From the NCBI GenBank assembly GCA_024673055.1, contig GCA_024673055.1_4537.1: 64,000 nucleotides of DNA. One strand, 5' to 3'. The notes beneath the pieces are model-generated. The model was not told the DNA's origin and searched no databases. It saw only the letters and a program-made list of their open reading frames with translations. This stretch comes from a phage. A program made the position numbers and the translations under genes. Below are positions 18,706-33,262 of this stretch, one piece after another. Each line of letters begins with the position of its first letter. Position 1 is the stretch's first letter.

Positions 18706-19362
18706 ATGACTATTAAACATATCTCTTTTGATGTATGGAACACACTGATCACAGCAAACTCCAATTACGCAGATATGCGAGCCTGGACTATCGCAAAATA
18801 TGGAGATATTACGGAAGTGGAAGCAAGAGCAGCTTATAAGAAGATCAAAAAGGAACTGGATAATGCAGCACTTCAAGGCAAAGCTGAGTGTGCAGCATAC
18901 GCCTGGGAAAGACTTGGTTCTGAACTTGGGATAACCCCTTGGAAGTCTGCAAAGCTTCGTTTCGAGTGTGAACAGTGGTTCCTTAAGTTTCCACCACACG
19001 TAGCCGTGGATCTGCCGATGTACTTGCTGTATCTTTCGGGACGTTATGATTTGAGTATTAAGAGCAATACCAACTTCATATCAGGAGATATCCTGCGTCG
19101 TGCTTGTAAGTTTGATAGTTGGAATTGTTTTGAGTTCACCCATTTCTCGGATGAAGCTTTACTTTGTAAACCAGATCCGCGATTCTTTGCTCGCACGCTC
19201 ACGTATTCTCCGATCCCTCTATTAGGGCACGAAGTATTGCACGTAGGCGATAGTGAAGAATACGATGGAAAATGTGTTGACTTAGGATTTAACTTCTGTC
19301 ATATTAGGAACCCTAACGACTTACTAGAGAAACTTAAAAGAGGAGAAATTGTAAATGCGTAA
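18706..19362 (+). CDS. HAD-superfamily hydrolase/phosphatase-like protein
   Basis: Motif I-like ISFDVWNTLI, motif III K-PDPRFF, motif IV HVGDSEEYD. Confidence 0.6.
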   Translation: MTIKHISFDVWNTLITANSNYADMRAWTIAKYGDITEVEARAAYKKIKKELDNAALQGKAECAAYAWERLGSELGITPWKSAKLRFECEQWFLKFPPHVAVDLPMYLLYLSGRYDLSIKSNTNFISGDILRRACKFDSWNCFEFTHFSDEALLCKPDPRFFARTLTYSPIPLLGHEVLHVGDSEEYDGKCVDLGFNFCHIRNPNDLLEKLKRGEIVNA

Positions 19363-20182
19363 TCAAACTCAAATTTTTGCAAATAAATTTGATGACCTGG
19401 AAACTGCTACTTTTGATATTAAAGATTATTCAAAATTGAAATTTGGTAGTAACCAGGCTGCGCGTCGTATGGGTAAAGAATTGGCACTTCAGTTTTTTGC
19501 TCAAGTGGCAATGAAACATATTGGGGAACAATTTGTTATAATCCCTTCTCCTTACAACCATGTGCATAATGCTGCAACAATGATGACAGATCATTTTATT
19601 AATTACTTTAATATGTTGCAATCACAATATGATCAAGGTCGTTCAGCAGAACTGGATATTATTCATCGTAAAGTTAGCTATATCAACGATTATGGTTTCT
19701 TGGATAAAGCTAGTCGTAAGAAACTTATTGATGGGGATACATTCTACTGCAACAAAGAATTCTGGGGTGATAAGAAGCTTGTGTTTATTGATGATGTAAA
19801 TATCACTGGAACTCATGAAGACAAACTGATTGAGATCCTTGATGAAAATCAAGTTAAAAATGATGTTTACTTCTTGTATTTTGCAAAATATGAAGGTAAT
19901 CAAGCAGATACCGAAGCTAAACTGAATTTTAATTATATTAATACACCAGAAGCGTTTATTAAAATGATTAATGAAGAACGTGATGCACAGTGCCTTGTTC
20001 GTCCTATTAAGTATCTTATGGGCCAAAATCACGAAGACTTCAAAATCATTCTTAGCCAATTGCCACACTACTATGTAGAGCAACTTTTCTTCGGATGTTT
20101 GGGAGAAGGTTACAACCGAATTTCAAAGTATGCTGAAAACTTTGAATTCTTGGATCGTTACACAAAACAACACATTCTGTAA
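19355..20182 (+). CDS. type I phosphoribosyltransferase-like protein
   Basis: PRPP-binding-like motif KKLVFIDDVNITGTHEDK. Confidence 0.55.
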   Translation: MRNQTQIFANKFDDLETATFDIKDYSKLKFGSNQAARRMGKELALQFFAQVAMKHIGEQFVIIPSPYNHVHNAATMMTDHFINYFNMLQSQYDQGRSAELDIIHRKVSYINDYGFLDKASRKKLIDGDTFYCNKEFWGDKKLVFIDDVNITGTHEDKLIEILDENQVKNDVYFLYFAKYEGNQADTEAKLNFNYINTPEAFIKMINEERDAQCLVRPIKYLMGQNHEDFKIILSQLPHYYVEQLFFGCLGEGYNRISKYAENFEFLDRYTKQHIL

Positions 20183-20195
20183 TAAGGAGCTAAAA

Positions 20196-20681
20196 ATGCT
20201 TAAAATGAAAACAGGTAATCTTATTGATGCCGCTAAAGCAGGTGAAGTAACTGTTATTGCTCATTGTTGCAACTGTATGTGTAATATGGGGGCAGGTATT
20301 GCCCCACAAATAAAATATGCGTTTCCATATGCATACGAAGCAGATTTAGCTACAGGAGCAGGAAACCAGAAAAAGCTTGGTTCTTTTAGTTTAGGAGAAC
20401 CAGAAGATTATCCTAATCCTATGGTATACAACCTTTATGGACAGTATCGTTATGGATACAATAGTAAAGGTCGTCAACTAGATTATGATGCACTGTATGA
20501 TGCTCTTGCAGCTATGGCAATGGACTTACACAATTACGATAAAGGAGATCAACCAGCACATAAGATTGGTCTACCTATGATTGGCGCTGGATATGCTGGA
20601 GGTAATTGGGCTATCATCCAAGTGATGATTGAAGAAACTTTAGTAAAAACAGGTCACGATGTGACTATTTATAAACTTTAA
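20196..20681 (+). CDS. macro-domain protein (ADP-ribose binding/processing)
   Basis: VIAHCCNCMCNMGAGIA and IGLPMIGAGYAGGNW resemble macro-domain Gly-rich motifs; ATG at 20196 after AAGGAG RBS. Confidence 0.6.
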   Translation: MLKMKTGNLIDAAKAGEVTVIAHCCNCMCNMGAGIAPQIKYAFPYAYEADLATGAGNQKKLGSFSLGEPEDYPNPMVYNLYGQYRYGYNSKGRQLDYDALYDALAAMAMDLHNYDKGDQPAHKIGLPMIGAGYAGGNWAIIQVMIEETLVKTGHDVTIYKL

Positions 20682-20994: not shown

Positions 20995-21969
20995 ATGCAA
21001 CTTGGTTTCCCAATTATTGATGTAGTTGTTTTAGTTGGTATTTTGGCATTGTCTATTGGTATCGATTTCTTTGGTCATAAAGAGAATAAAGAAATTGGAA
21101 TTAAATCTGCTTTGCTTTGGTCTGTTTTTTGGATTGCTTTAGCTTTAGGATATTACGCATTCATTTGGGTAGAACATGGTAAAGAGTTTGCCGCGCTTTT
21201 CCTAAGTGGCTATGTGTTGGAAAAGAGTCTTTCTGTAGATAACCTGATGGTGTTCATGGCAATTTTTGCAAGCTTTGGAATTAAGAGCACACATCTCCAA
21301 CATAAGATTTTACTTTGGGGGATTGCAGGAGCCATTGTCTTCCGAGGTATTTTTGTTGCAGCAGGGACCGCTTTGTTTAACCTTCATTGGTCGGTCCAAG
21401 TGTTGTTCGGTTTGATTGTAGCTTGGTCTGCCGTGGCTATCATCAAAGGTGGTGACGAAGAAGAGGATATTGATTACTCTAAGCATTGGGCTGTTCGTTT
21501 AGTAGGTAAAGTTCTGCCTGTGCACAATGCACTGGATGGTGAAAAGTTCATCACCATTAAGAATGGTATTAAATATGCAACTCCTGCTCTTCTTTGTGTG
21601 TTTGTTATTGAGCTTACAGATATTGTCTTCTCTTTTGATTCAGTTCCGGCTGTGATCGGTGTGACACAAGAACCTCTGCTAGTTTATTCTGCAATGCTGA
21701 TGGCTGTTCTTGGTTTACGTGCACTTTTCTTTGTGTTAAGTGTGGCTGTGAAATATCTGGTTCACTTAGAGAAAGCTGTTGCTGTGGTTCTGGTGTTTGT
21801 CGGTGCTAAACTTATGTATCACCCGTTCGGTGAAACACTTCATGCCAAATGGTCATTCCTCCCGCATGATATTTCCCCTAACGTAAGTCTGATGATTGTT
21901 CTAGGCACATTAGCTCTTGGTGTTATTGCAAGTTTTATCTTCCCTGAAAAAGAAGAAGCTGCTGTTTAA
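20995..21969 (+). CDS. terC: TerC-family integral membrane protein
   Basis: Multiple TM segments; EKSLSVDNLMVF and ELTDIVFSFDSVPAVIGVT match TerC signature blocks. Confidence 0.75.
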   Translation: MQLGFPIIDVVVLVGILALSIGIDFFGHKENKEIGIKSALLWSVFWIALALGYYAFIWVEHGKEFAALFLSGYVLEKSLSVDNLMVFMAIFASFGIKSTHLQHKILLWGIAGAIVFRGIFVAAGTALFNLHWSVQVLFGLIVAWSAVAIIKGGDEEEDIDYSKHWAVRLVGKVLPVHNALDGEKFITIKNGIKYATPALLCVFVIELTDIVFSFDSVPAVIGVTQEPLLVYSAMLMAVLGLRALFFVLSVAVKYLVHLEKAVAVVLVFVGAKLMYHPFGETLHAKWSFLPHDISPNVSLMIVLGTLALGVIASFIFPEKEEAAV

Positions 21970-22530: not shown

Positions 22531-22983
22531 ATGAGGAAAGCAAATATGAAAAAACTAGCCCTGATTTTAATTGGTTGTATCTTTTTAACAGCTTGCGAGG
22601 ATGAAACAAATCCTGCACAATACCAACAACCTCCTCAACAATACGCTCAACAAGGATCTGACGGAGATACAACTATTATCAACAATGGTGGCGGTTCTAG
22701 TAGTAGCGGTGTTGGTGAGTTTGCTACAGGTATGTTGTTAGGGCATATGATGAGTGGTGGTAGTAATCGTAACAGTGGAGATTATAACGATAACAGAACG
22801 ATTATTAATAAGCATTATAATACACCTAAACCGAAAACTAATTTTTATGGTAAGCCTAAACAAGAGATAAAAACTTATGAAAAGCCGAGACAAACTTTTA
22901 AAACAAATAGTAGCTATACAACTCGTAAATCTTACAATAGCCCTTTAAGTAAAAAGAGTTCATCTCGTAGCAAGCGACGTTAA
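22531..22983 (+). CDS. putative lipoprotein (Gly/Ser/Asn-rich, basic C-terminus)
   Basis: Signal peptide with lipobox LTAC; start may be 22531 or 22546. Confidence 0.5.
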   Translation: MRKANMKKLALILIGCIFLTACEDETNPAQYQQPPQQYAQQGSDGDTTIINNGGGSSSSGVGEFATGMLLGHMMSGGSNRNSGDYNDNRTIINKHYNTPKPKTNFYGKPKQEIKTYEKPRQTFKTNSSYTTRKSYNSPLSKKSSSRSKRR

Positions 22984-23594: not shown

Positions 23595-24185
23595 ATGCAT
23601 ACCGAGAGAGACTTGCAACTCTTGTGGTGGGAAGTGATGCAGGAAATAAAAGAAGATTTTCCTGTTTACTACAACATGTTACGTGAAGCAGGATATAAAG
23701 CTTGTGTTAGAAACAAAGTGAATAACTCTTTCGGTTGGTGCAACTACCGAGATAAAATTGTTGTTGTAAATTGGCACTTGCATAAGAACTCCACAAGAGA
23801 TATGATCGTGGATACAATGAAGCACGAAATTGCTCATGCTATTGATGGTTGTATGGGTAAGTTTAGTAGGCACGGTGCTCATTGGCAAAAACTGGCAGCA
23901 GAATTAGGGGCTAATCCTAAAGCCACTTCCAAAGAGCCGTTGAACCACGAATATAAATATGTTCTTGTTCTGGTAGATAGGTTTGCGACAAGATGTGTTA
24001 GAGGTTATAATCGTAAACCTAATCGCATGTACCCAGGTAAGCAACCTAATATGTGGTTGAAATCAGATAAAGAAGGGACCGAAGGAAAATTATGGTTGTA
24101 TAAATGGGACGATTGGGTTAAAGTAGCTAAAGAGTACGGTGTTTCACCATATATAAGAGATGCAGAAGAGGAGAATGAAGAATGA
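23595..24185 (+). CDS. SprT-like zinc metallopeptidase
   Basis: HEIAHAIDG (HExxH) followed by HGAHWQKLAAELG, as in SprT-like proteins. Confidence 0.55.
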   Translation: MHTERDLQLLWWEVMQEIKEDFPVYYNMLREAGYKACVRNKVNNSFGWCNYRDKIVVVNWHLHKNSTRDMIVDTMKHEIAHAIDGCMGKFSRHGAHWQKLAAELGANPKATSKEPLNHEYKYVLVLVDRFATRCVRGYNRKPNRMYPGKQPNMWLKSDKEGTEGKLWLYKWDDWVKVAKEYGVSPYIRDAEEENEE

Positions 24186-25294
24186 CAAGTCCATTTTTAA
24201 AAGCAGCTACTGGTGGTCAGAAGAAGCCTGAAATGAGCGTATTTGCTGCAACAACAGATGCAAGTAAATCTGTATTCGCTCCAAGCGTGTTAGATGCCAG
24301 TCCTGTTTATGCACCAGCGGCACCGCAAGAAGTTCCAGTTTTGCCTTCTATGACCCGACAAGAGATTGAAGAGATTGGGGCAGAGGCAGGAACAACCTTG
24401 CGTTCCTTGAATGCCGAGGTGTTAAAACATCAACGTAGTAATCAAGGCGATCAGATGAGTGAACGACTCACAGCTTTGATTAAACAGGCAAAACAACTTG
24501 ATCCAAACTCTATTAAACAAAGCAAGGGTATTACTAAACTCATTAAAAAAGTTATGGGTATGAAAGAAGACCTGTTCGGGGAGTTTGATAATGTTAATAA
24601 CCGTATTGAAGAGTTGGTAAAGAACCTTCAAATGGATATTCGCAAAGAAGAAGATTCCTTAGTATATCTTGAAAAGCTACATCAAGCTATTGGACAATAT
24701 GCTGCAAGTTTGAACCGAGATATGCAGCTTCTAACAGCAACCTATGAAAAAGAAGAACAAGCTTTGGCTGCTCTTCCAGAAGATGCAGTAGAACAGCGAC
24801 AAGTGATCCGAGATACTTTGGATCTTCTGGAGATTCGTATTGCAGATTTAAAAGCATTGCGCCTACTGTGTGTCCAAATGGGACCGCGTGTACAAGGTAT
24901 GCAAAAAGTTTCTGCAAGCTTAATGCGATCTGCGCGTAACATAGTAAATAATGTTATTCCTGCTTACTCTGCTAACTTCTCAATGTATATCGAGAGCTTA
25001 CGTCAAATGAAAGCAGCAGAGACGCAGAATAACGTTCTTGATGAATTTAACCTGGCAATTAAACTGGGTAGCGATCTTGCCACACAGAATCAGATCGAAG
25101 CAGCAGCACTGGCTAACCGTCAAGTGTTGGATATTGAAACTCTGCGTCACGATCAGGAAAACTTGGTTAAGATGTTGGAAGAAACTAACCGCATCAATAC
25201 GGAAGCCCGTGCTGCTCGTGTTGATTATATTAATGAAGTTCAGTCTCTGGAAGACGGGATGGTAGCTGCTGTGAAACGAGGGCTTGGTAAATGA
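24182..25294 (+). CDS. coiled-coil protein, possibly TelA-like toxic-anion-resistance family
   Basis: 370-aa helical protein inside a Ter-like gene neighbourhood; family assignment by size and context only. Confidence 0.4.
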   Translation: MTSPFLKAATGGQKKPEMSVFAATTDASKSVFAPSVLDASPVYAPAAPQEVPVLPSMTRQEIEEIGAEAGTTLRSLNAEVLKHQRSNQGDQMSERLTALIKQAKQLDPNSIKQSKGITKLIKKVMGMKEDLFGEFDNVNNRIEELVKNLQMDIRKEEDSLVYLEKLHQAIGQYAASLNRDMQLLTATYEKEEQALAALPEDAVEQRQVIRDTLDLLEIRIADLKALRLLCVQMGPRVQGMQKVSASLMRSARNIVNNVIPAYSANFSMYIESLRQMKAAETQNNVLDEFNLAIKLGSDLATQNQIEAAALANRQVLDIETLRHDQENLVKMLEETNRINTEARAARVDYINEVQSLEDGMVAAVKRGLGK

Positions 25295-26052: not shown

Positions 26053-26615
26053 TGGGTTGTTTTAGCTTTTTGTGCAAAGAATCGGGCAAAGCTGCCCTTT
26101 CTACTTCTTTCGACGGATCACCTTGCTACCTCTTTCTTTTGAAGGACGGTGTTGTTATTGAAGAGATGTATGGCAACTATGATAGTTATGGTTGTGTTTT
26201 CTCTGGAAAGGAGGATGAAAATGGTGTTCGTGAACGATTTGAATGGGCTATGGATTGGAGTAAGGTTTGTGATTTGATGCATTCCTCAAATCCAAGGGAC
26301 GGTATCGCTATGGTGCTGGAAGAGTACTTTACAGGTGAAATCCCTACAGAACAATCTGACGGAGATCCTAACCAAGGTTGGGGTGATGGTGAAGAAGATC
26401 CAGATTGTTTTTTCAGCACAGAAAAGAATAAGTTTAAACGTGTTGACAACCCTTATCACAAAGTGCATAATACTCTCATTGAAACAGAAGATGACAAGAT
26501 GGAAATTGAAGAAGATGATCCTCTTGTAACACTTCCTATAAGTGAGTTACAAAAGATCACTAAGGAAGCTTACGATTTGGGCTTCAAAATTGGTAGAGGA
26601 GGTATGCGTGTTTAG
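26052..26615 (+). CDS. hypothetical acidic protein (187 aa)
   Basis: ORF with RBS. Confidence 0.45.
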   Translation: MGCFSFLCKESGKAALSTSFDGSPCYLFLLKDGVVIEEMYGNYDSYGCVFSGKEDENGVRERFEWAMDWSKVCDLMHSSNPRDGIAMVLEEYFTGEIPTEQSDGDPNQGWGDGEEDPDCFFSTEKNKFKRVDNPYHKVHNTLIETEDDKMEIEEDDPLVTLPISELQKITKEAYDLGFKIGRGGMRV

Positions 26616-26886
26616 ATTCAATATTCAAGAAGAAAAAAGTCAAGATTTACCTATTGCTTTCGAAGATCTTGACGTAGGGGCAACATTCATGTATTATGAT
26701 GCCTATGAAGACGCAGGGTTGGATACCTACCGTAACTTGGTGTTCATTAAAAATTCCACAAACAGTGCGATTTGTATTAATGGATCACTAGCACAACGAG
26801 GCTATACTCATTGCATCCCACCAGATACAAATATGGTGGAAGTAGATTTAGAAGTTACCAATATTACACTTAAGAAGGAGAAATAA
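26608..26886 (+). CDS. small protein, paralog A of 27908-28177
   Basis: GTG start after AGGAGG; shares (I/F)xDLDVG(A/D)TF(M/V)Y...GLD...EV(D/E)L(E/T)VT(N/G)ITLK with 27908-28177. Confidence 0.45.
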   Translation: MFRFNIQEEKSQDLPIAFEDLDVGATFMYYDAYEDAGLDTYRNLVFIKNSTNSAICINGSLAQRGYTHCIPPDTNMVEVDLEVTNITLKKEK

Positions 26887-26887
26887 T

Positions 26888-27682
26888 ATGTCCGAGAAAA
26901 TCAGCCTGAAAAAACGTCAAGAAAACCTTGCTTTCTCTCTGAAAAAGAATAAGAACCTGAATGAAGGTAAGATTGTTCTTCGTGTAGCATGTGCTCTAGA
27001 TATTTCTGGTAGTATGCATGGTCTATATTCTAGTGGGGTAGTGAGTGATTTTGTAGGTAAACTGCTTCCTTTTGGTATGCTGTTCGACGATAATCAACAA
27101 ATTGATATGTGGGCCTTCAATACGAGTTCCCAAGAGCTTACTCCAGCAACAGCAGACGTTTACGATGACTATGTTGGTAAATGTATGCGTAATGTTCGTA
27201 TCGGAGGTGGAACAAATTACGCCCCTGTAATGGCAGATATCTACGATGAGTATTTTGGCACTGTTACCAAATATATTACCACTAAACAAGTGGTACAAGA
27301 GGAGGCTCCAAAGAAAGGCTTCTTTAATCGTCTGCTTGGTAAAACTGAAACAGTGTCTGTAGAGCGTGAAAAAGTTGTAGCTGTATCTGAACCAGGTGCT
27401 GACGTTACCCCTGGTGTTGTATTCTTCCAGACGGATGGTGAGAATGGTGATCCTAGTGCTGTTCGTCGTCTTATTGAAGAGAATAAGAATAAACCTATTT
27501 ATTGGTTCATGGTTGGCGTTGGTAATGAGAAGTTTGGCTTCCTGAAAGAACTGGCAAATGCTTATGATAATGTTGGTTTTATTGGCATTAAAGATTTAGA
27601 CTTGACAGATTCAGAGCTTTATGACAAACTCTTATCTGAAGAGTTCGGAGAGTGGGTTGTTAAAGTAGGTGCTAAAAAATGA
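26888..27682 (+). CDS. von Willebrand factor A (vWA) domain protein, TerY-like, with TerD-like N-terminal leader
   Basis: MIDAS motifs DISGSM, GGTN, QTDGE; N-terminus KISLKK...SLKK resembles TerD N-terminus. Confidence 0.7.
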   Translation: MSEKISLKKRQENLAFSLKKNKNLNEGKIVLRVACALDISGSMHGLYSSGVVSDFVGKLLPFGMLFDDNQQIDMWAFNTSSQELTPATADVYDDYVGKCMRNVRIGGGTNYAPVMADIYDEYFGTVTKYITTKQVVQEEAPKKGFFNRLLGKTETVSVEREKVVAVSEPGADVTPGVVFFQTDGENGDPSAVRRLIEENKNKPIYWFMVGVGNEKFGFLKELANAYDNVGFIGIKDLDLTDSELYDKLLSEEFGEWVVKVGAKK

Positions 27683-27927
27683 TCGACGAGCTTGCCTCTC
27701 AAGTCATAGAAAATTATTGGCGCGAGAGAGAAGCTTTCATTATGCGCAGTCTCAAAGAGTATTTCATTGGGACTGTGCGAATGGAAGATATTGTAAGTAG
27801 AGTAGAGATTCATGTATGGCCCGATTATGAAGAATGGGTTGACAAAGAAAATGAAAATGCTATAATTCTTCGTATATACAAACCGGAGATAACATTAGGA
27901 GGAAGAAGTGTTAAACTTCGAAATTGA
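27679..27927 (+). CDS. hypothetical protein (82 aa)
   Basis: ORF, start overlaps previous stop. Confidence 0.4.
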   Translation: MIDELASQVIENYWREREAFIMRSLKEYFIGTVRMEDIVSRVEIHVWPDYEEWVDKENENAIILRIYKPEITLGGRSVKLRN

Positions 27928-28177
27928 TGAGCAAAAAGTAAATAAACGATGTCTTACCATTAAAGATTTGGATGTAGGAGATACTTTCGTCTATGAAAAT
28001 GCATTTGACGAAAATGGTTTAGACCTTAGTGAAATCATTGTTTATTTAAAAGTAGATGATGGGGAAAATGATTGTTCTGCTGTAGAACTAAACCATCATG
28101 CACAATTAGTATCAATCCAAAACACATCCAAGCTTTTGGAAGTAGAATTGACTGTAACTGGTATTACACTTAAATAA
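27908..28177 (+). CDS. small protein, paralog B of 26608-26886
   Basis: See 26608-26886. Confidence 0.45.
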   Translation: MLNFEIDEQKVNKRCLTIKDLDVGDTFVYENAFDENGLDLSEIIVYLKVDDGENDCSAVELNHHAQLVSIQNTSKLLEVELTVTGITLK

Positions 28178-28192
28178 TAGAGGAGACAAAAG

Positions 28193-28795
28193 ATGACTGA
28201 TAAAATTTCCCTGAAAAAAGGCTCTAGCGAAAAAATTTCCCTGAAGAAAGTTGCTCCGGCTCTGAAAGAACTGCGCCTGGAATTCTCTTGGAAATCTGAT
28301 TCTAAACTGGATCTGGATGTAAGTGCACTGGTTTGTCGTCACAATGCCACTGGCAATCCTGAAATGCTGTCTGCACGTCACCTGGTTTGCTATGCTAACA
28401 AGTTTGATCCTGAACGTTCTACCTTCGCTGGTGACGATGTTCGTGATGGAACTGGCAGCATGGAGCAGATTGATATTACTCTGGCTAAAATCTCTCCTGA
28501 TGCACAAGAGATTGCCTTTGTTCTGACCATTGATGATGATACAGGTCTGAAACGTTTTGGTCATGCTTCTGAAGGTATGCTTAAAATCTTTGACTCCGAG
28601 CGCAATGTTGAAATTCTGGATTTTGACTTCCTGGCTCCTGAAGTAGCTGGCAACACAATCTGCCACGTGGCTTCCTTGGTTCGTGAAGATGGGGAATGGA
28701 AGCTGAAAGCATATGGTGTAGGTAAAGCTGGTCTGGATATTTGTGATGTGGTGATGGCCTTCGGTGGTAAAAAAGAATGGTATGAATGTCCATAA
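28193..28795 (+). CDS. terD: TerD-family protein
   Basis: Duplicated KISLKK leader, DLDVSAL, AGDDVRDGTGS, AFVLTIDDD, DGEWKLKAYGVG align to TerD-family blocks; CTG/CGT/GGT-dominated codon usage. Confidence 0.8.
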   Translation: MTDKISLKKGSSEKISLKKVAPALKELRLEFSWKSDSKLDLDVSALVCRHNATGNPEMLSARHLVCYANKFDPERSTFAGDDVRDGTGSMEQIDITLAKISPDAQEIAFVLTIDDDTGLKRFGHASEGMLKIFDSERNVEILDFDFLAPEVAGNTICHVASLVREDGEWKLKAYGVGKAGLDICDVVMAFGGKKEWYECP

Positions 28796-28813: not shown

Positions 28814-28836
28814 GAGGGGGAGAAATCCCCCTCTTG
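28814..28836 (+). terminator. Rho-independent terminator GAGGGGG-AGAAAT-CCCCCTC
   Basis: Hairpin after terD stop; T-run weak. Confidence 0.5.
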
Positions 28837-30689: not shown

Positions 30690-31373
30690 ATGGAAAATAT
30701 TAAAATCGGAGTGGGTGTTATCACTGTAGGTGTCCGTCCACTTAAAGACTACCTTGTAACAGATCCACGTGCAGATTTTCGAGTATTCAACGATCCAGAC
30801 CGTAAAGGTGTAGCTTATGCCAGGAATGAACTTATGCACCAGTTTTATGAAGAAGGTTATGATTATTGGTTTATTTTTGACGACGATTGCTACCCAGTCA
30901 TGGAAGGATGGGAAACATACTTTGTAGATCAAGCTGTTTCTGGAGGATGGGATTTCTTTGGTATGCCGGAGTACTTCAAAGATAAAGTTGTTGGAAGCAA
31001 AGGAGAAGTTATTCTCTGGGAACTTGCAATGTGTCAATTTGCAATGTATTCTCGTGCCGTTGTTGAGAAGATGGGTTATTTCCGCCCTTACACTCACGGT
31101 TATGGTTTTGAAGATGCCGAATGGGGACACCGTTTGAAAGCTGCTGGTTTGAATCATGGTATTCAGGCAACACCTTGTCCACTTCGTATCATGGCTTATA
31201 TCCACCCAGACGATGTTTTTGGAAACAATCCTATGCCTTTTGCTAATCTGACAAAAGAAGAGAAAGAAGCTGCTATCGGGATTAACTGGGAAGAATATAA
31301 AGCATCTTTAGAGGATATTAAAAATGGGAAAATCCGAATTTCCTATGAGGAGGCACTGGCACATGTCAAATAA
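30690..31373 (+). CDS. GT-A fold glycosyltransferase-like protein
   Basis: FIFDDDCYP (DxD), YGFEDAEWGHRL. Confidence 0.55.
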   Translation: MENIKIGVGVITVGVRPLKDYLVTDPRADFRVFNDPDRKGVAYARNELMHQFYEEGYDYWFIFDDDCYPVMEGWETYFVDQAVSGGWDFFGMPEYFKDKVVGSKGEVILWELAMCQFAMYSRAVVEKMGYFRPYTHGYGFEDAEWGHRLKAAGLNHGIQATPCPLRIMAYIHPDDVFGNNPMPFANLTKEEKEAAIGINWEEYKASLEDIKNGKIRISYEEALAHVK

Positions 31374-32310
31374 AAAATGGTCTAAACTAAAAATTGATGC
31401 GAAACCTCACAGCGGTTGTGACTATCATCGTATTGTTATGCCACTTAACAACCATAATCTTCAACCTAAGAAAGATGTTGTTGTGTTTAACCGTATCCAC
31501 TCTAAAGGTGCAGAATACGTTTTATCTTTGAAACGTCAAGGTGTTAAGATTGTTGTAGATTTAGATGATTTCTACCAACTTAATCCAGAACATTATTTAG
31601 CAAGTCTATACGAGTCAAACACTCATACTATTGTAGCTATGGTTAAGCTTGCTGATGTGGTTATTGTGACTACAGAATATTTGGCATATAAGATCCGTCA
31701 CTTAAATAGGAATGTTGTTGTGATCCGAAATGCACTTCCTTTTGATAGTGGACAATTCACTTTGTCAAATGATCGTTCATCCGGTACCCCTGTTGTATGG
31801 GCTGGAGGTGCTAGTCACGAACCAGATTTACGACTAGTCTCTAATACTTTCGATGATGAGCTTCTTACTATTGCGGGATATGAAGCATCGCAGAGCATCA
31901 CGGGACAAGAGTGGATTAAGATTCGCAGAAATTTACCAAATGCTAAATATAAAGCTGCTGTAAAAGATTTAGATAATTACATGAGTGTTTACGAAAGTCA
32001 TGCTATTGCTATAGCTCCTTTGGTAGATAATGATTTTAATAATTGTAAAAGTAATCTCAAAATCCTAGAAGCTGGAGCAAAGGGTATTCCGATTGTTTGT
32101 TCTAAGGTATTACCTTATTTTAACCCTGTAGATGCTCGTGCTGTTGCTTACGCAGAGAACAAAGCAGAATGGCATTACGAAATTGTTAAGCTTCTTCGCA
32201 ATCCAAACTATCGGGAAGATCGTGGCTTGTTCTTGGCTGAACATGTTCGAACACATTATAATCTGGCAGATGCAAATGAGTTGCGACGCCAGGTTATTGA
32301 AAGTTTGTAG
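31363..32310 (+). CDS. GT-B fold glycosyltransferase-like protein, paralog 1
   Basis: SNLKILEAGAKGIPIVCS resembles GT4-type E-A-x-A-x-G-x-P motif; ATG at 31363 after GAGGAGG. Confidence 0.55.
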   Translation: MSNKKWSKLKIDAKPHSGCDYHRIVMPLNNHNLQPKKDVVVFNRIHSKGAEYVLSLKRQGVKIVVDLDDFYQLNPEHYLASLYESNTHTIVAMVKLADVVIVTTEYLAYKIRHLNRNVVVIRNALPFDSGQFTLSNDRSSGTPVVWAGGASHEPDLRLVSNTFDDELLTIAGYEASQSITGQEWIKIRRNLPNAKYKAAVKDLDNYMSVYESHAIAIAPLVDNDFNNCKSNLKILEAGAKGIPIVCSKVLPYFNPVDARAVAYAENKAEWHYEIVKLLRNPNYREDRGLFLAEHVRTHYNLADANELRRQVIESL

Positions 32311-32317
32311 GTGAAGT

Positions 32318-33262
32318 ATGGGACAAATAATTCTTGACAATCGTAACGGAATCAATTATAGTGTCTGCGATTTCCATAGGGTAGTGCTGCCTTACTCAAG
32401 GCAGTTCTCTTCACAACCTAAATACAACGTTTTCGTTTTTAACGGAGTGCCAACAAAAGGTAAAGAGGGCTTTTTAGCCCTTAAAAACCTAGGCTTTAAA
32501 ATGGTTATGGATTTGGATGACTCTTTAGTTATTCCAAAAGGACACATGTTAGAAGGTATTTTTGAATCAGGTATTCGTGAACATTTAAAATGGTTTTTAG
32601 AGCACAGCGATCTTGTTACAACTACGACACCTGCTTTGCAAGTTGAACTTTCACAATACAATGATAATGTGCACATAATCCCTAATGGACTTCCTTACGA
32701 TGAAGGTCAATTTGTGTTGACCCGTGATCGCTACTCCAAAACTCCATTAGTCTGGGCTGGAAGTGAAACACATAAACAAGATTTGGCTATCTTACCTGAT
32801 TTTGGTAAAGATCTTACAATATGTGGTTTTCGTAGGGATTCTGAAGTTTTAAGTAGTCGTGAATGGTCTGTAATCAGAGAAAATGTAGCACCAACTTGTG
32901 TTTATGAAGGTGTAAGACCATATGCCAACTACATGGAATCTTACGATGGTCATCAAATCAGTCTTGCGCCATTGATTGATAACGTGTTTAATAATGCAAA
33001 AAGCAATCTTAAAATTCTTGAGGCAGGTGCTAAGGGTTTACCTTTGATCTGTTCTCCTCGTGAGAATTATCATACGCAAGAGTTTAAAGATTTGTTATTC
33101 TTTGCTGAAACACCTTCCGAGTGGAAAGATATTACGGAATACTTATTAAGTGCTCCCGATGTTTGCATGGAGAAAGGATTAGCATTAGCTAAGTATGTCA
33201 GGACTCATTATCACATTGATGTGTTGAATGAGCGTCGTAGACTTTTATTTGAGGAGCTATAA
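32318..33262 (+). CDS. GT-B fold glycosyltransferase-like protein, paralog 2
   Basis: Collinear similarity to 31363-32310 (VVFN..., DLDD, SNLKILEAGAKGLPLICS, YVRTHY). Confidence 0.55.
   Translation: MGQIILDNRNGINYSVCDFHRVVLPYSRQFSSQPKYNVFVFNGVPTKGKEGFLALKNLGFKMVMDLDDSLVIPKGHMLEGIFESGIREHLKWFLEHSDLVTTTTPALQVELSQYNDNVHIIPNGLPYDEGQFVLTRDRYSKTPLVWAGSETHKQDLAILPDFGKDLTICGFRRDSEVLSSREWSVIRENVAPTCVYEGVRPYANYMESYDGHQISLAPLIDNVFNNAKSNLKILEAGAKGLPLICSPRENYHTQEFKDLLFFAETPSEWKDITEYLLSAPDVCMEKGLALAKYVRTHYHIDVLNERRRLLFEEL

Follow-up and report, generated by a model that had tools for sequence, protein, structure and literature searches.

Duplicated members of a phage-only small protein family beside the vWA and TerD genes of a Phapecoctavirus-like coliphage Ter cluster

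Ter clusters are common in bacteria, plasmids and large phages, and to our knowledge there is no account of how TerD, the TerF-type vWA protein, TelA and TerC work together. Ter systems of the kind considered here (TerC, TelA, TerF-type vWA, TerD and a PRTase/HAD branch) were reportedly described by Anantharaman, Iyer and Aravind in 2012. We analyzed a 64,000-nucleotide stretch of phage DNA (assembly GCA_024673055.1, contig GCA_024673055.1_4537.1; hereafter the window), in which two small genes, A and B, accompany the genes for a vWA-TerF-like protein and a TerD-domain protein. Phage-borne Ter clusters of this make-up are already known (Iyer et al., 2021, PMC7824862; Klebsiella phage phiKp34, PMC8386662), and superinfection exclusion or stress protection has been proposed as their role (PMC7824862). 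The window has the same component set and order, namely PRTase_3, macro/HAD-like hydrolases, TerC, TelA, vWA-TerF-like and TerD. It differs in a lineage-specific, duplicated family wedged around the vWA-TerD pair; the available portions of both papers mention no small SH3-like accessory gene. The locus is a lineage-specific version of a known type of phage Ter cluster, in which an accessory gene has been duplicated.

The preferred reading is that A and B descend from an old duplication within a phage-only family, that each would belong to a promoter-led unit, and that their products might act as low-abundance modulators of vWA and TerD. To this explanation as a whole we assign a probability of roughly 45%. 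Its descriptive and evolutionary part, taken alone, is very probable; the functional part taken alone, namely that the small proteins modulate vWA/TerD, is tentative and rather doubtful. The points in its favor are the paralogy, the narrow phage range, the constant linkage to vWA/TerD, the repeated local duplication, the coupling of A to the vWA gene and the conserved promoter-like sites. The intact metal ion-dependent adhesion site (MIDAS) of the vWA protein, at which an acidic ligand might dock, was also counted for it.

Gene A (26608..26886; 92 amino acids (aa), isoelectric point (pI) 4.4) and gene B (27908..28177; 89 aa, pI 4.3) are on the plus strand, as are all features described below, and represent the 'pre-vWA' and 'pre-TerD' types of PHROG 11278. 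Both start with GTG, and a GGAGG/AGGAGG Shine-Dalgarno sequence is located 5-6 bases before each start. The initial annotation had described the two products as paralogs and proposed a pairwise alignment as a check. BLASTP aligned A and B without gaps, with 31 of 89 residues identical (35%) and E=2e-16, so that the paralogy is significant, and both proteins matched PHROG 11278 (function unknown) end to end (A, 4.2e-51 over positions 1-92 of 92; B, 2.6e-45 over 1-89 of 92). A and B are ancient paralogs within one phage-only family of ∼90 aa. Homologs of A and B in other phages had 26-90% identity with length and motifs kept, every member of the family had its own Shine-Dalgarno sequence, and the pairwise ratio of nonsynonymous to synonymous substitutions (dN/dS) of the small genes was ∼0.2-0.5, a rough value as dS was saturated. 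An AlphaFold2 (AF2) model of A, obtained with an alignment of 22 sequences, had a pLDDT of 84.6 and a pTM of 0.75. The conservation across phages, the dN/dS and the confident model of A indicate that A and B are genuine coding genes, and the long GTG start of A is backed by the family-wide conservation of residues 1-28. In at least one GenBank record, that of the close relative EF1-1, a shortened, 65-aa version of A is annotated. The EF1-1 record labels copy B 'RNA ligase', and another record has 'RNA-binding protein' at this locus; no support for either label was found in this analysis.

The members of the small family are acidic and fast-evolving, and their predicted fold is a small SH3-like beta-barrel. 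The modeled topology of A, five short strands and one short helix, may correspond to that of the SH3-like small barrels of the ribosomal L2 C-domain, KOW/EF-P domain I, FeoA, Tudor and HspQ, and all structural neighbors found in BFVD were uncharacterized small phage proteins. The C-terminal strand of the small proteins is ISLK-like and conserved (ITLKK, ITLK, ISL, VSLK; window 26863-26877 and 28160-28174) and is similar to the KISLKK with which vWA and TerD begin. Neither this strand nor the conserved F-x-F strand at the N-terminus is paired in the model.

The family is phage-only and narrow, because only phage proteins were retrieved from searches of 5.8 and 1.84 billion sequences, a single phage contig was retrieved from species genomes, and neither Pfam (A and B) nor the anti-phage defence models of PADLOC (seven proteins of the Ter block, 0 matches) gave a match. 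The word-indexed search of 5.8 billion proteins resulted in 23 clusters. The exhaustive HMMER search of 1.84 billion representatives resulted in 24 matches at E <= 0.001, of which ∼20 were true members or fragments (∼50-93 aa), namely proteins of 87-93 aa and a few fragments of ∼55 aa; the long matches P0025, P0035 and P0040 were discarded as repeat proteins that aligned piecemeal. A scan of one genome per species (185,579 species) found a single copy, 99% identical, on an 18.6-kb contig of a metagenome-assembled genome (MAG). This contig (L057, JAEZZU010000159.1, 'MAG: Proteobacteria bacterium') is probably phage DNA binned into the MAG. For annotation the gain is modest: what is added to a family of unknown function is its genomic context, its evolutionary history and a prediction of its fold class.

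Linkage of the small gene was examined in the window and in loci L001-L013, L017, L020, L021 and L025 from related phages, and in every one of them it adjoins the vWA gene, the TerD gene or both. The layout of the window, small gene-vWA-∼81 aa-small gene-TerD, was also present in L001, L004, L008, L009 and L017. Justusliebigvirus (L002, L020, L025) and Klebsiella phage 05F01 (L003) have one copy ahead of vWA and none ahead of TerD; one copy between vWA and TerD was found in L005, L006/L021, L007 and L010, and two tandem copies in the same place in L011, L012 and L013. The tandem copies at 1180-1725 of L011 and 5001-5546 of L013 are diverged family members in a more distant phage lineage, and this pair is apparently a duplication separate from the A/B pair. 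In a neighbor-joining tree the pre-vWA copies clustered (bootstrap 60%), as did the Phapecoctavirus pre-TerD copies (66%), and all more distant members occupied the pre-TerD slot. The A/B duplication is older than the divergence of the lineages of the window, L004 and L008, since every one of them has a copy in both tree groups. The tree gave no firm order of the duplications (bootstrap for A and B as sisters, only 18%). The ∼81-aa product between the copies corresponds in the window to an 82-aa open reading frame (ORF82; 27679..27927; PHROG 22387, function unknown), and all phages in which it was found carry copy B as well. Diverged family members were looked for among ORF82, the 86-aa ORF of L014, the 116-aa ORF of L015 and the 57-, 65-, 132- and 187-aa ORFs of the window, and none was detected (hmmsearch E >= 0.09); for ORF82 the hhalign probability of a relationship was 0.2%.

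Each small copy seems to stand first in a sigma-70 unit of its own. Upstream of A, by ∼140 nucleotides (nt) and inside the 187-aa ORF, is a sigma-70-like promoter site (26443..26471; TTGACA-17-CATAAT), called from its 11/12 consensus match only. A site with the same 11/12 match is present in the equivalent place in L001, L002 and L004, and in L004 it lies within the intergenic gap directly before A. The site preceding B (27839..27866; TTGACA-16-TGnTATAAT, sigma-70 consensus with extended -10) is located within the coding sequence of ORF82, 42 nt before B, and is the sole 12/12 plus-strand match in the window. Its hexamers, spacing and TG were invariant in four lineages, although the ORF82 proteins there were only 55-60% identical. 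At the A-vWA junction, the last codons of A (AAG GAG AAA TAA) include the AGGAG that serves the vWA gene as its Shine-Dalgarno sequence and run into TAAtATG (window 26873-26890); this junction, AGGAGAAATAAtATG, was kept in 9/9 loci. As the tail codons double as the Shine-Dalgarno sequence, the '-xEK' tail of the pre-vWA small proteins probably reflects a constraint at the nucleotide level. A G+C-rich hairpin with an 8-bp stem and a GAAA loop (28814..28833; -17.2 kcal/mol, z = -3.15) is located 19 nt past the TerD stop. It has a weak U-tract and was not called by the terminator scan; it is the probable 3' end or stabilizer of the B-TerD transcript. The region would thus be read as one unit from the 26443 promoter through A and vWA, possibly on into ORF82, with A translationally coupled to vWA, and a second from the 27839 promoter through B and TerD to the hairpin.

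The vWA-TerF-like protein (26888..27682; 264 aa) matched PF10138 above the gathering score (1.6e-37) and its MIDAS is intact: the DxSxS...T...D pattern is complete, with residues D38, S40, S42, T109 and D183. The Pfam domain begins at residue 31. The 30 residues ahead of it had no Pfam match even at E <= 10. The protein is not a TerF-type TerD+vWA fusion, having only these 30 residues and no TerD domain N-terminal to the vWA domain. Bacterial TerD-vWA fusions (e.g., P0099 and P0102) and stand-alone PF10138 proteins have the same vWA domain and MIDAS, and also an hSLxK-rich segment directly before the domain; the phage protein is unlike the fusions in that its TerD is a separate, downstream gene. 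The AF2 model of the vWA protein (pLDDT 92.5) showed a long, two-stranded beta-hairpin arm inserted in the fold (residues 125-169; window 27260-27394), with a family-wide KGFFxxLxGK tip in which G144 and G151 are at least 90% conserved. Judged from the model, this arm may be a membrane- or partner-contacting loop. The vWA domains of copine and RGLG (BON1, 6KXK; RGLG2, 8HMG), which are eukaryotic and membrane- or ubiquitin-linked, lack such an arm and tip. UBL (ubiquitin-like) domains of Rsa4/NLE1 bind the MIDAS domain of Midasin, and by analogy the small barrel could dock on the vWA metal site through the near-invariant Asp of its GLD motif (D39) and gate the engagement of the real vWA target. 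We regard this as very improbable: the analogy is its only basis, D39 is not kept in every distant member (e.g., P0038), and the ancestral-looking slot of the small gene adjoins TerD and not vWA.

The TerD-domain protein (28193..28795; 200 aa) matched PF02342 at 2.9e-28 and 99 bits (cutoff 25.3), residues 5-179 covering profile positions 3-177, and from residue 3 onward it could be aligned to 2KXT, a solved structure of TerD. Its GDDVRDGTGS aligned with GDNRTGEGDGD of 2KXT and is a candidate for the Ca2+-binding acidic motif of the GDN(R/L)TG type. The vWA and TerD proteins belong to different Pfam families and folds, and their likeness is limited to the N-terminal ∼9-19 residues. The codon adaptation index (CAI), calculated relative to E. 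coli with the w table of Sharp and Li (1987) and approximate in its values, was 0.54 for TerD, in which CTG accounts for 17 of the 19 Leu codons. In the stretch from 19.3 to 35.3 kb, the 26 further genes that were scored had values of 0.15-0.37, including 0.37 for vWA, 0.22 for A and 0.26 for B. This codon adaptation, far above that of the neighboring genes, suggests that TerD is very highly expressed.

Several observations weigh against a functional tie of the small proteins to vWA and TerD. Among 40 IMG/VR loci with a vWA-TerF-like gene, the small family was present in only five, and a six-frame search within 3 kb of vWA detected no member in the other 35. L018 has no small gene although its vWA is 69% identical to that of the window, and L014 (86 aa) and L015 (116 aa) have unrelated small ORFs in the equivalent slots. 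Across phages, B was 42-51% identical and TerD 90-91%; dN/dS was 0.2-0.5 for the small proteins and 0.06-0.13 for TerD, and the CAI of the small genes (0.22-0.26) is far below that of TerD. The fast evolution, the gap in codon usage and the dispensability of the small proteins argue against a tight stoichiometric complex. All carriers also share a wide synteny (TerC...TelA...vWA...TerD...SleB-like hydrolase), and therefore the adjacency may reflect descent and not selection. The small gene is likewise absent from L022-L029, where vWA and TerD are separated by 30-80 nt. The genes for vWA and TerD form the conserved core, to which the small family is an optional, lineage-specific addition; the small gene is not obligate for the pair, and the reverse, that it always stands beside vWA or TerD, was true in all loci examined.

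Because all carriers are syntenic relatives, it is almost as likely as the modulator reading that A and B are hitchhiking early genes without a Ter function. They would then be fast-evolving phage accessory proteins, for host take-over or anti-defence, that stand behind strong early promoters for historical reasons and were duplicated locally. This possibility, which we take seriously while leaving it short of even odds, fits the high evolutionary rate and acidity of the proteins, the sporadic loss in close relatives (L018, L022-L029), the unrelated small ORFs in the same slots of other phages (L014, L015, ORF82) and the uncharacterized BFVD neighbors, and the shared synteny means that the linkage is not independent evidence. 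It fits less well that the family was only ever seen touching vWA or TerD, across phages whose vWA proteins are just ∼45-60% identical, that it was kept through at least two duplications, always inside a slot of ∼1.5 kb, and that A and vWA are translationally coupled in a strictly conserved manner. Under the modulator reading, Stephanstirmvirinae-like myophages of ∼150 kb would have the family as an optional accessory of the vWA(TerF-like)-TerD pair of their Ter cluster. Its members would bind proteins and not act as enzymes; present in sub-stoichiometric amounts, they would be modulators or adaptors of the assembly that the phage vWA and TerD proteins form and not obligatory one-to-one partners; they might, for example, tune this assembly or its contact with host components. 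A phage-specific small protein found only beside vWA-TerD would also be a cheap experimental handle, as a pull-down bait or a deletion target.

The initial annotation had further noted that each small gene lies immediately upstream of a gene whose product starts with KISLKK, and had interpreted this start as a TerD-type leader. The position was borne out by the sequence and the Pfam matches: the vWA protein begins with MSEKISLKK and TerD with MTDKISLKK (fuller N-termini, MSEKISLKKRQENLAFSLKK and MTDKISLKKGSSEKISLKK, respectively). The interpretation as a leader did not hold, as the TerD domain itself begins there, and the segment of vWA is family-wide, predicted to be helical and present also where there is no small gene. 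In TerD, KISLKKGSSEKISLKK (nt 28202-28249) forms strands 1-2 of the fold, and the Pfam and 2KXT alignments place ISLKKG..KISLKK on VSLSKGG-NVSLSK, the first hairpin of the beta-sandwich. The KISLKK...FSLKK segment of the vWA protein comprises residues 4-20 (nt 26897-26947); conservation of L7, K9, L18 and K20 is 90% or more among 37 phage and bacterial homologs, and residues 7-20 form an alpha-helix in the AF2 model. Stand-alone bacterial vWA proteins begin with IDLEKRAETV.I.LEK, and TerD-vWA fusions have ISLSKQRLISLEK...LINLAKQ in the linker just ahead of the vWA domain. The hSLxK/KISLKK motifs were found equally in phages and bacteria without the small gene. KISLKK is an intrinsic, family-wide element of TerD and vWA-TerF.

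The first motifs of vWA and TerD were compared in the window and L002-L053, a sample of phages plus one bacterial-looking locus, and were more alike within than between genomes (permutation p ∼1e-4, and 2e-3 on a thinned set, both without phylogenetic correction). Paired motifs of single genomes were, for instance, MAKVSLKK/MAKVSLKK, SEKISLKK/SEKISLKK and PLNLEK/PLSLEK. Recent gene conversion was rejected as the cause of this likeness, as the serine codons differ (AGC vs TCC). The co-variation within genomes suggests a shared constraint on the N-termini of vWA and TerD that would be independent of the small proteins. It points to a concrete, testable contact element and is the most interesting by-product of the analysis. 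A speculative idea, which we think very improbable, is that the hSLxK segments are a shared assembly code of Ter proteins; docking or swapping of strands would then make the small proteins phage-invented competitors or caps that control the polymerization of vWA-TerD under the membrane. Its named basis is the co-variation together with the unpaired ISLK-like end strand of the small barrels.

These results also bear on the proposal of the initial annotation that the locus holds a duplicated partner/effector module inside the Ter block. In its full form this model would have two dedicated partner/effector cassettes of duplicate origin, in which A works with vWA and B with TerD and recognition runs through the KISLKK 'leader' that vWA and TerD share. 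Part of the proposal stands: the small genes are paralogous, lie within the Ter block, are each directly before a Ter protein and each seem to be promoter-led. The duplication of a two-gene cassette is ruled out, because the vWA-TerD pair is the core also without the small gene and only the small gene is duplicated; vWA and TerD are of different Pfam families and folds. Dedicated partnership agrees with the position of each copy directly before one KISLKK protein at the head of its own putative transcription unit, with the separate grouping of A-type and B-type copies across phages (bootstrap 60% and 66%), and with the co-varying hSLxK motifs (p ∼1e-4 to 2e-3), which indicate some shared constraint. 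We nevertheless consider it unlikely, since the folds of vWA and TerD are unrelated and their adjacency is widespread without the small gene, the one gene of single-copy phages stands ahead of vWA in some and ahead of TerD in others, phages and bacteria that lack the family have the KISLKK motifs equally, and the motif is predicted to be helical in vWA and a beta-hairpin in TerD.

The 3-kb region was 99-99.6% identical to many Phapecoctavirus-type coliphages (phAPEC8-like, Stephanstirmvirinae, ∼150 kb), which identifies the window as a Phapecoctavirus-like coliphage; a literature search found no paper tying Phapecoctavirus or phAPEC8 to TerD function. Four GenBank records have doubtful-looking host labels (MG065650, MG065656, OP562383 and OR584014). 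The coliphage-type locus was present at ∼99% (protein or DNA) in three records labeled as Campylobacter or Acinetobacter phage; MG065656 and OR584014, labeled as Campylobacter and Pseudomonas phage, had only 54-63% protein identity to the locus.

The small genes, the vWA-TerF-like gene and the TerD gene sit in a long plus-strand block, whose genes amount to a fairly complete Ter system. The block also contains genes for PRTase_3 (19355-20182), a macro-like protein (20130-20681), TerC (20995-21969), an SprT-like protein (23595-24185) and TelA (24182-25294). An internal start in the ORF at 22546-22983 yields MKKLALILIGCIFLTAC..., a lipoprotein signal with lipobox followed by a low-complexity region rich in Q, S and G, and the product is a putative phage lipoprotein within the Ter block. 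Downstream of TerD are a SleB-type cell-wall hydrolase and then four glycosyltransferases. The glycosyltransferase genes at 31324-32310 and 32318-33262 are adjacent and paralogous, with long motifs in common (e.g., NN.KSNLKILEAGAKG), and both are labeled phrog_7162 in EF1-1.

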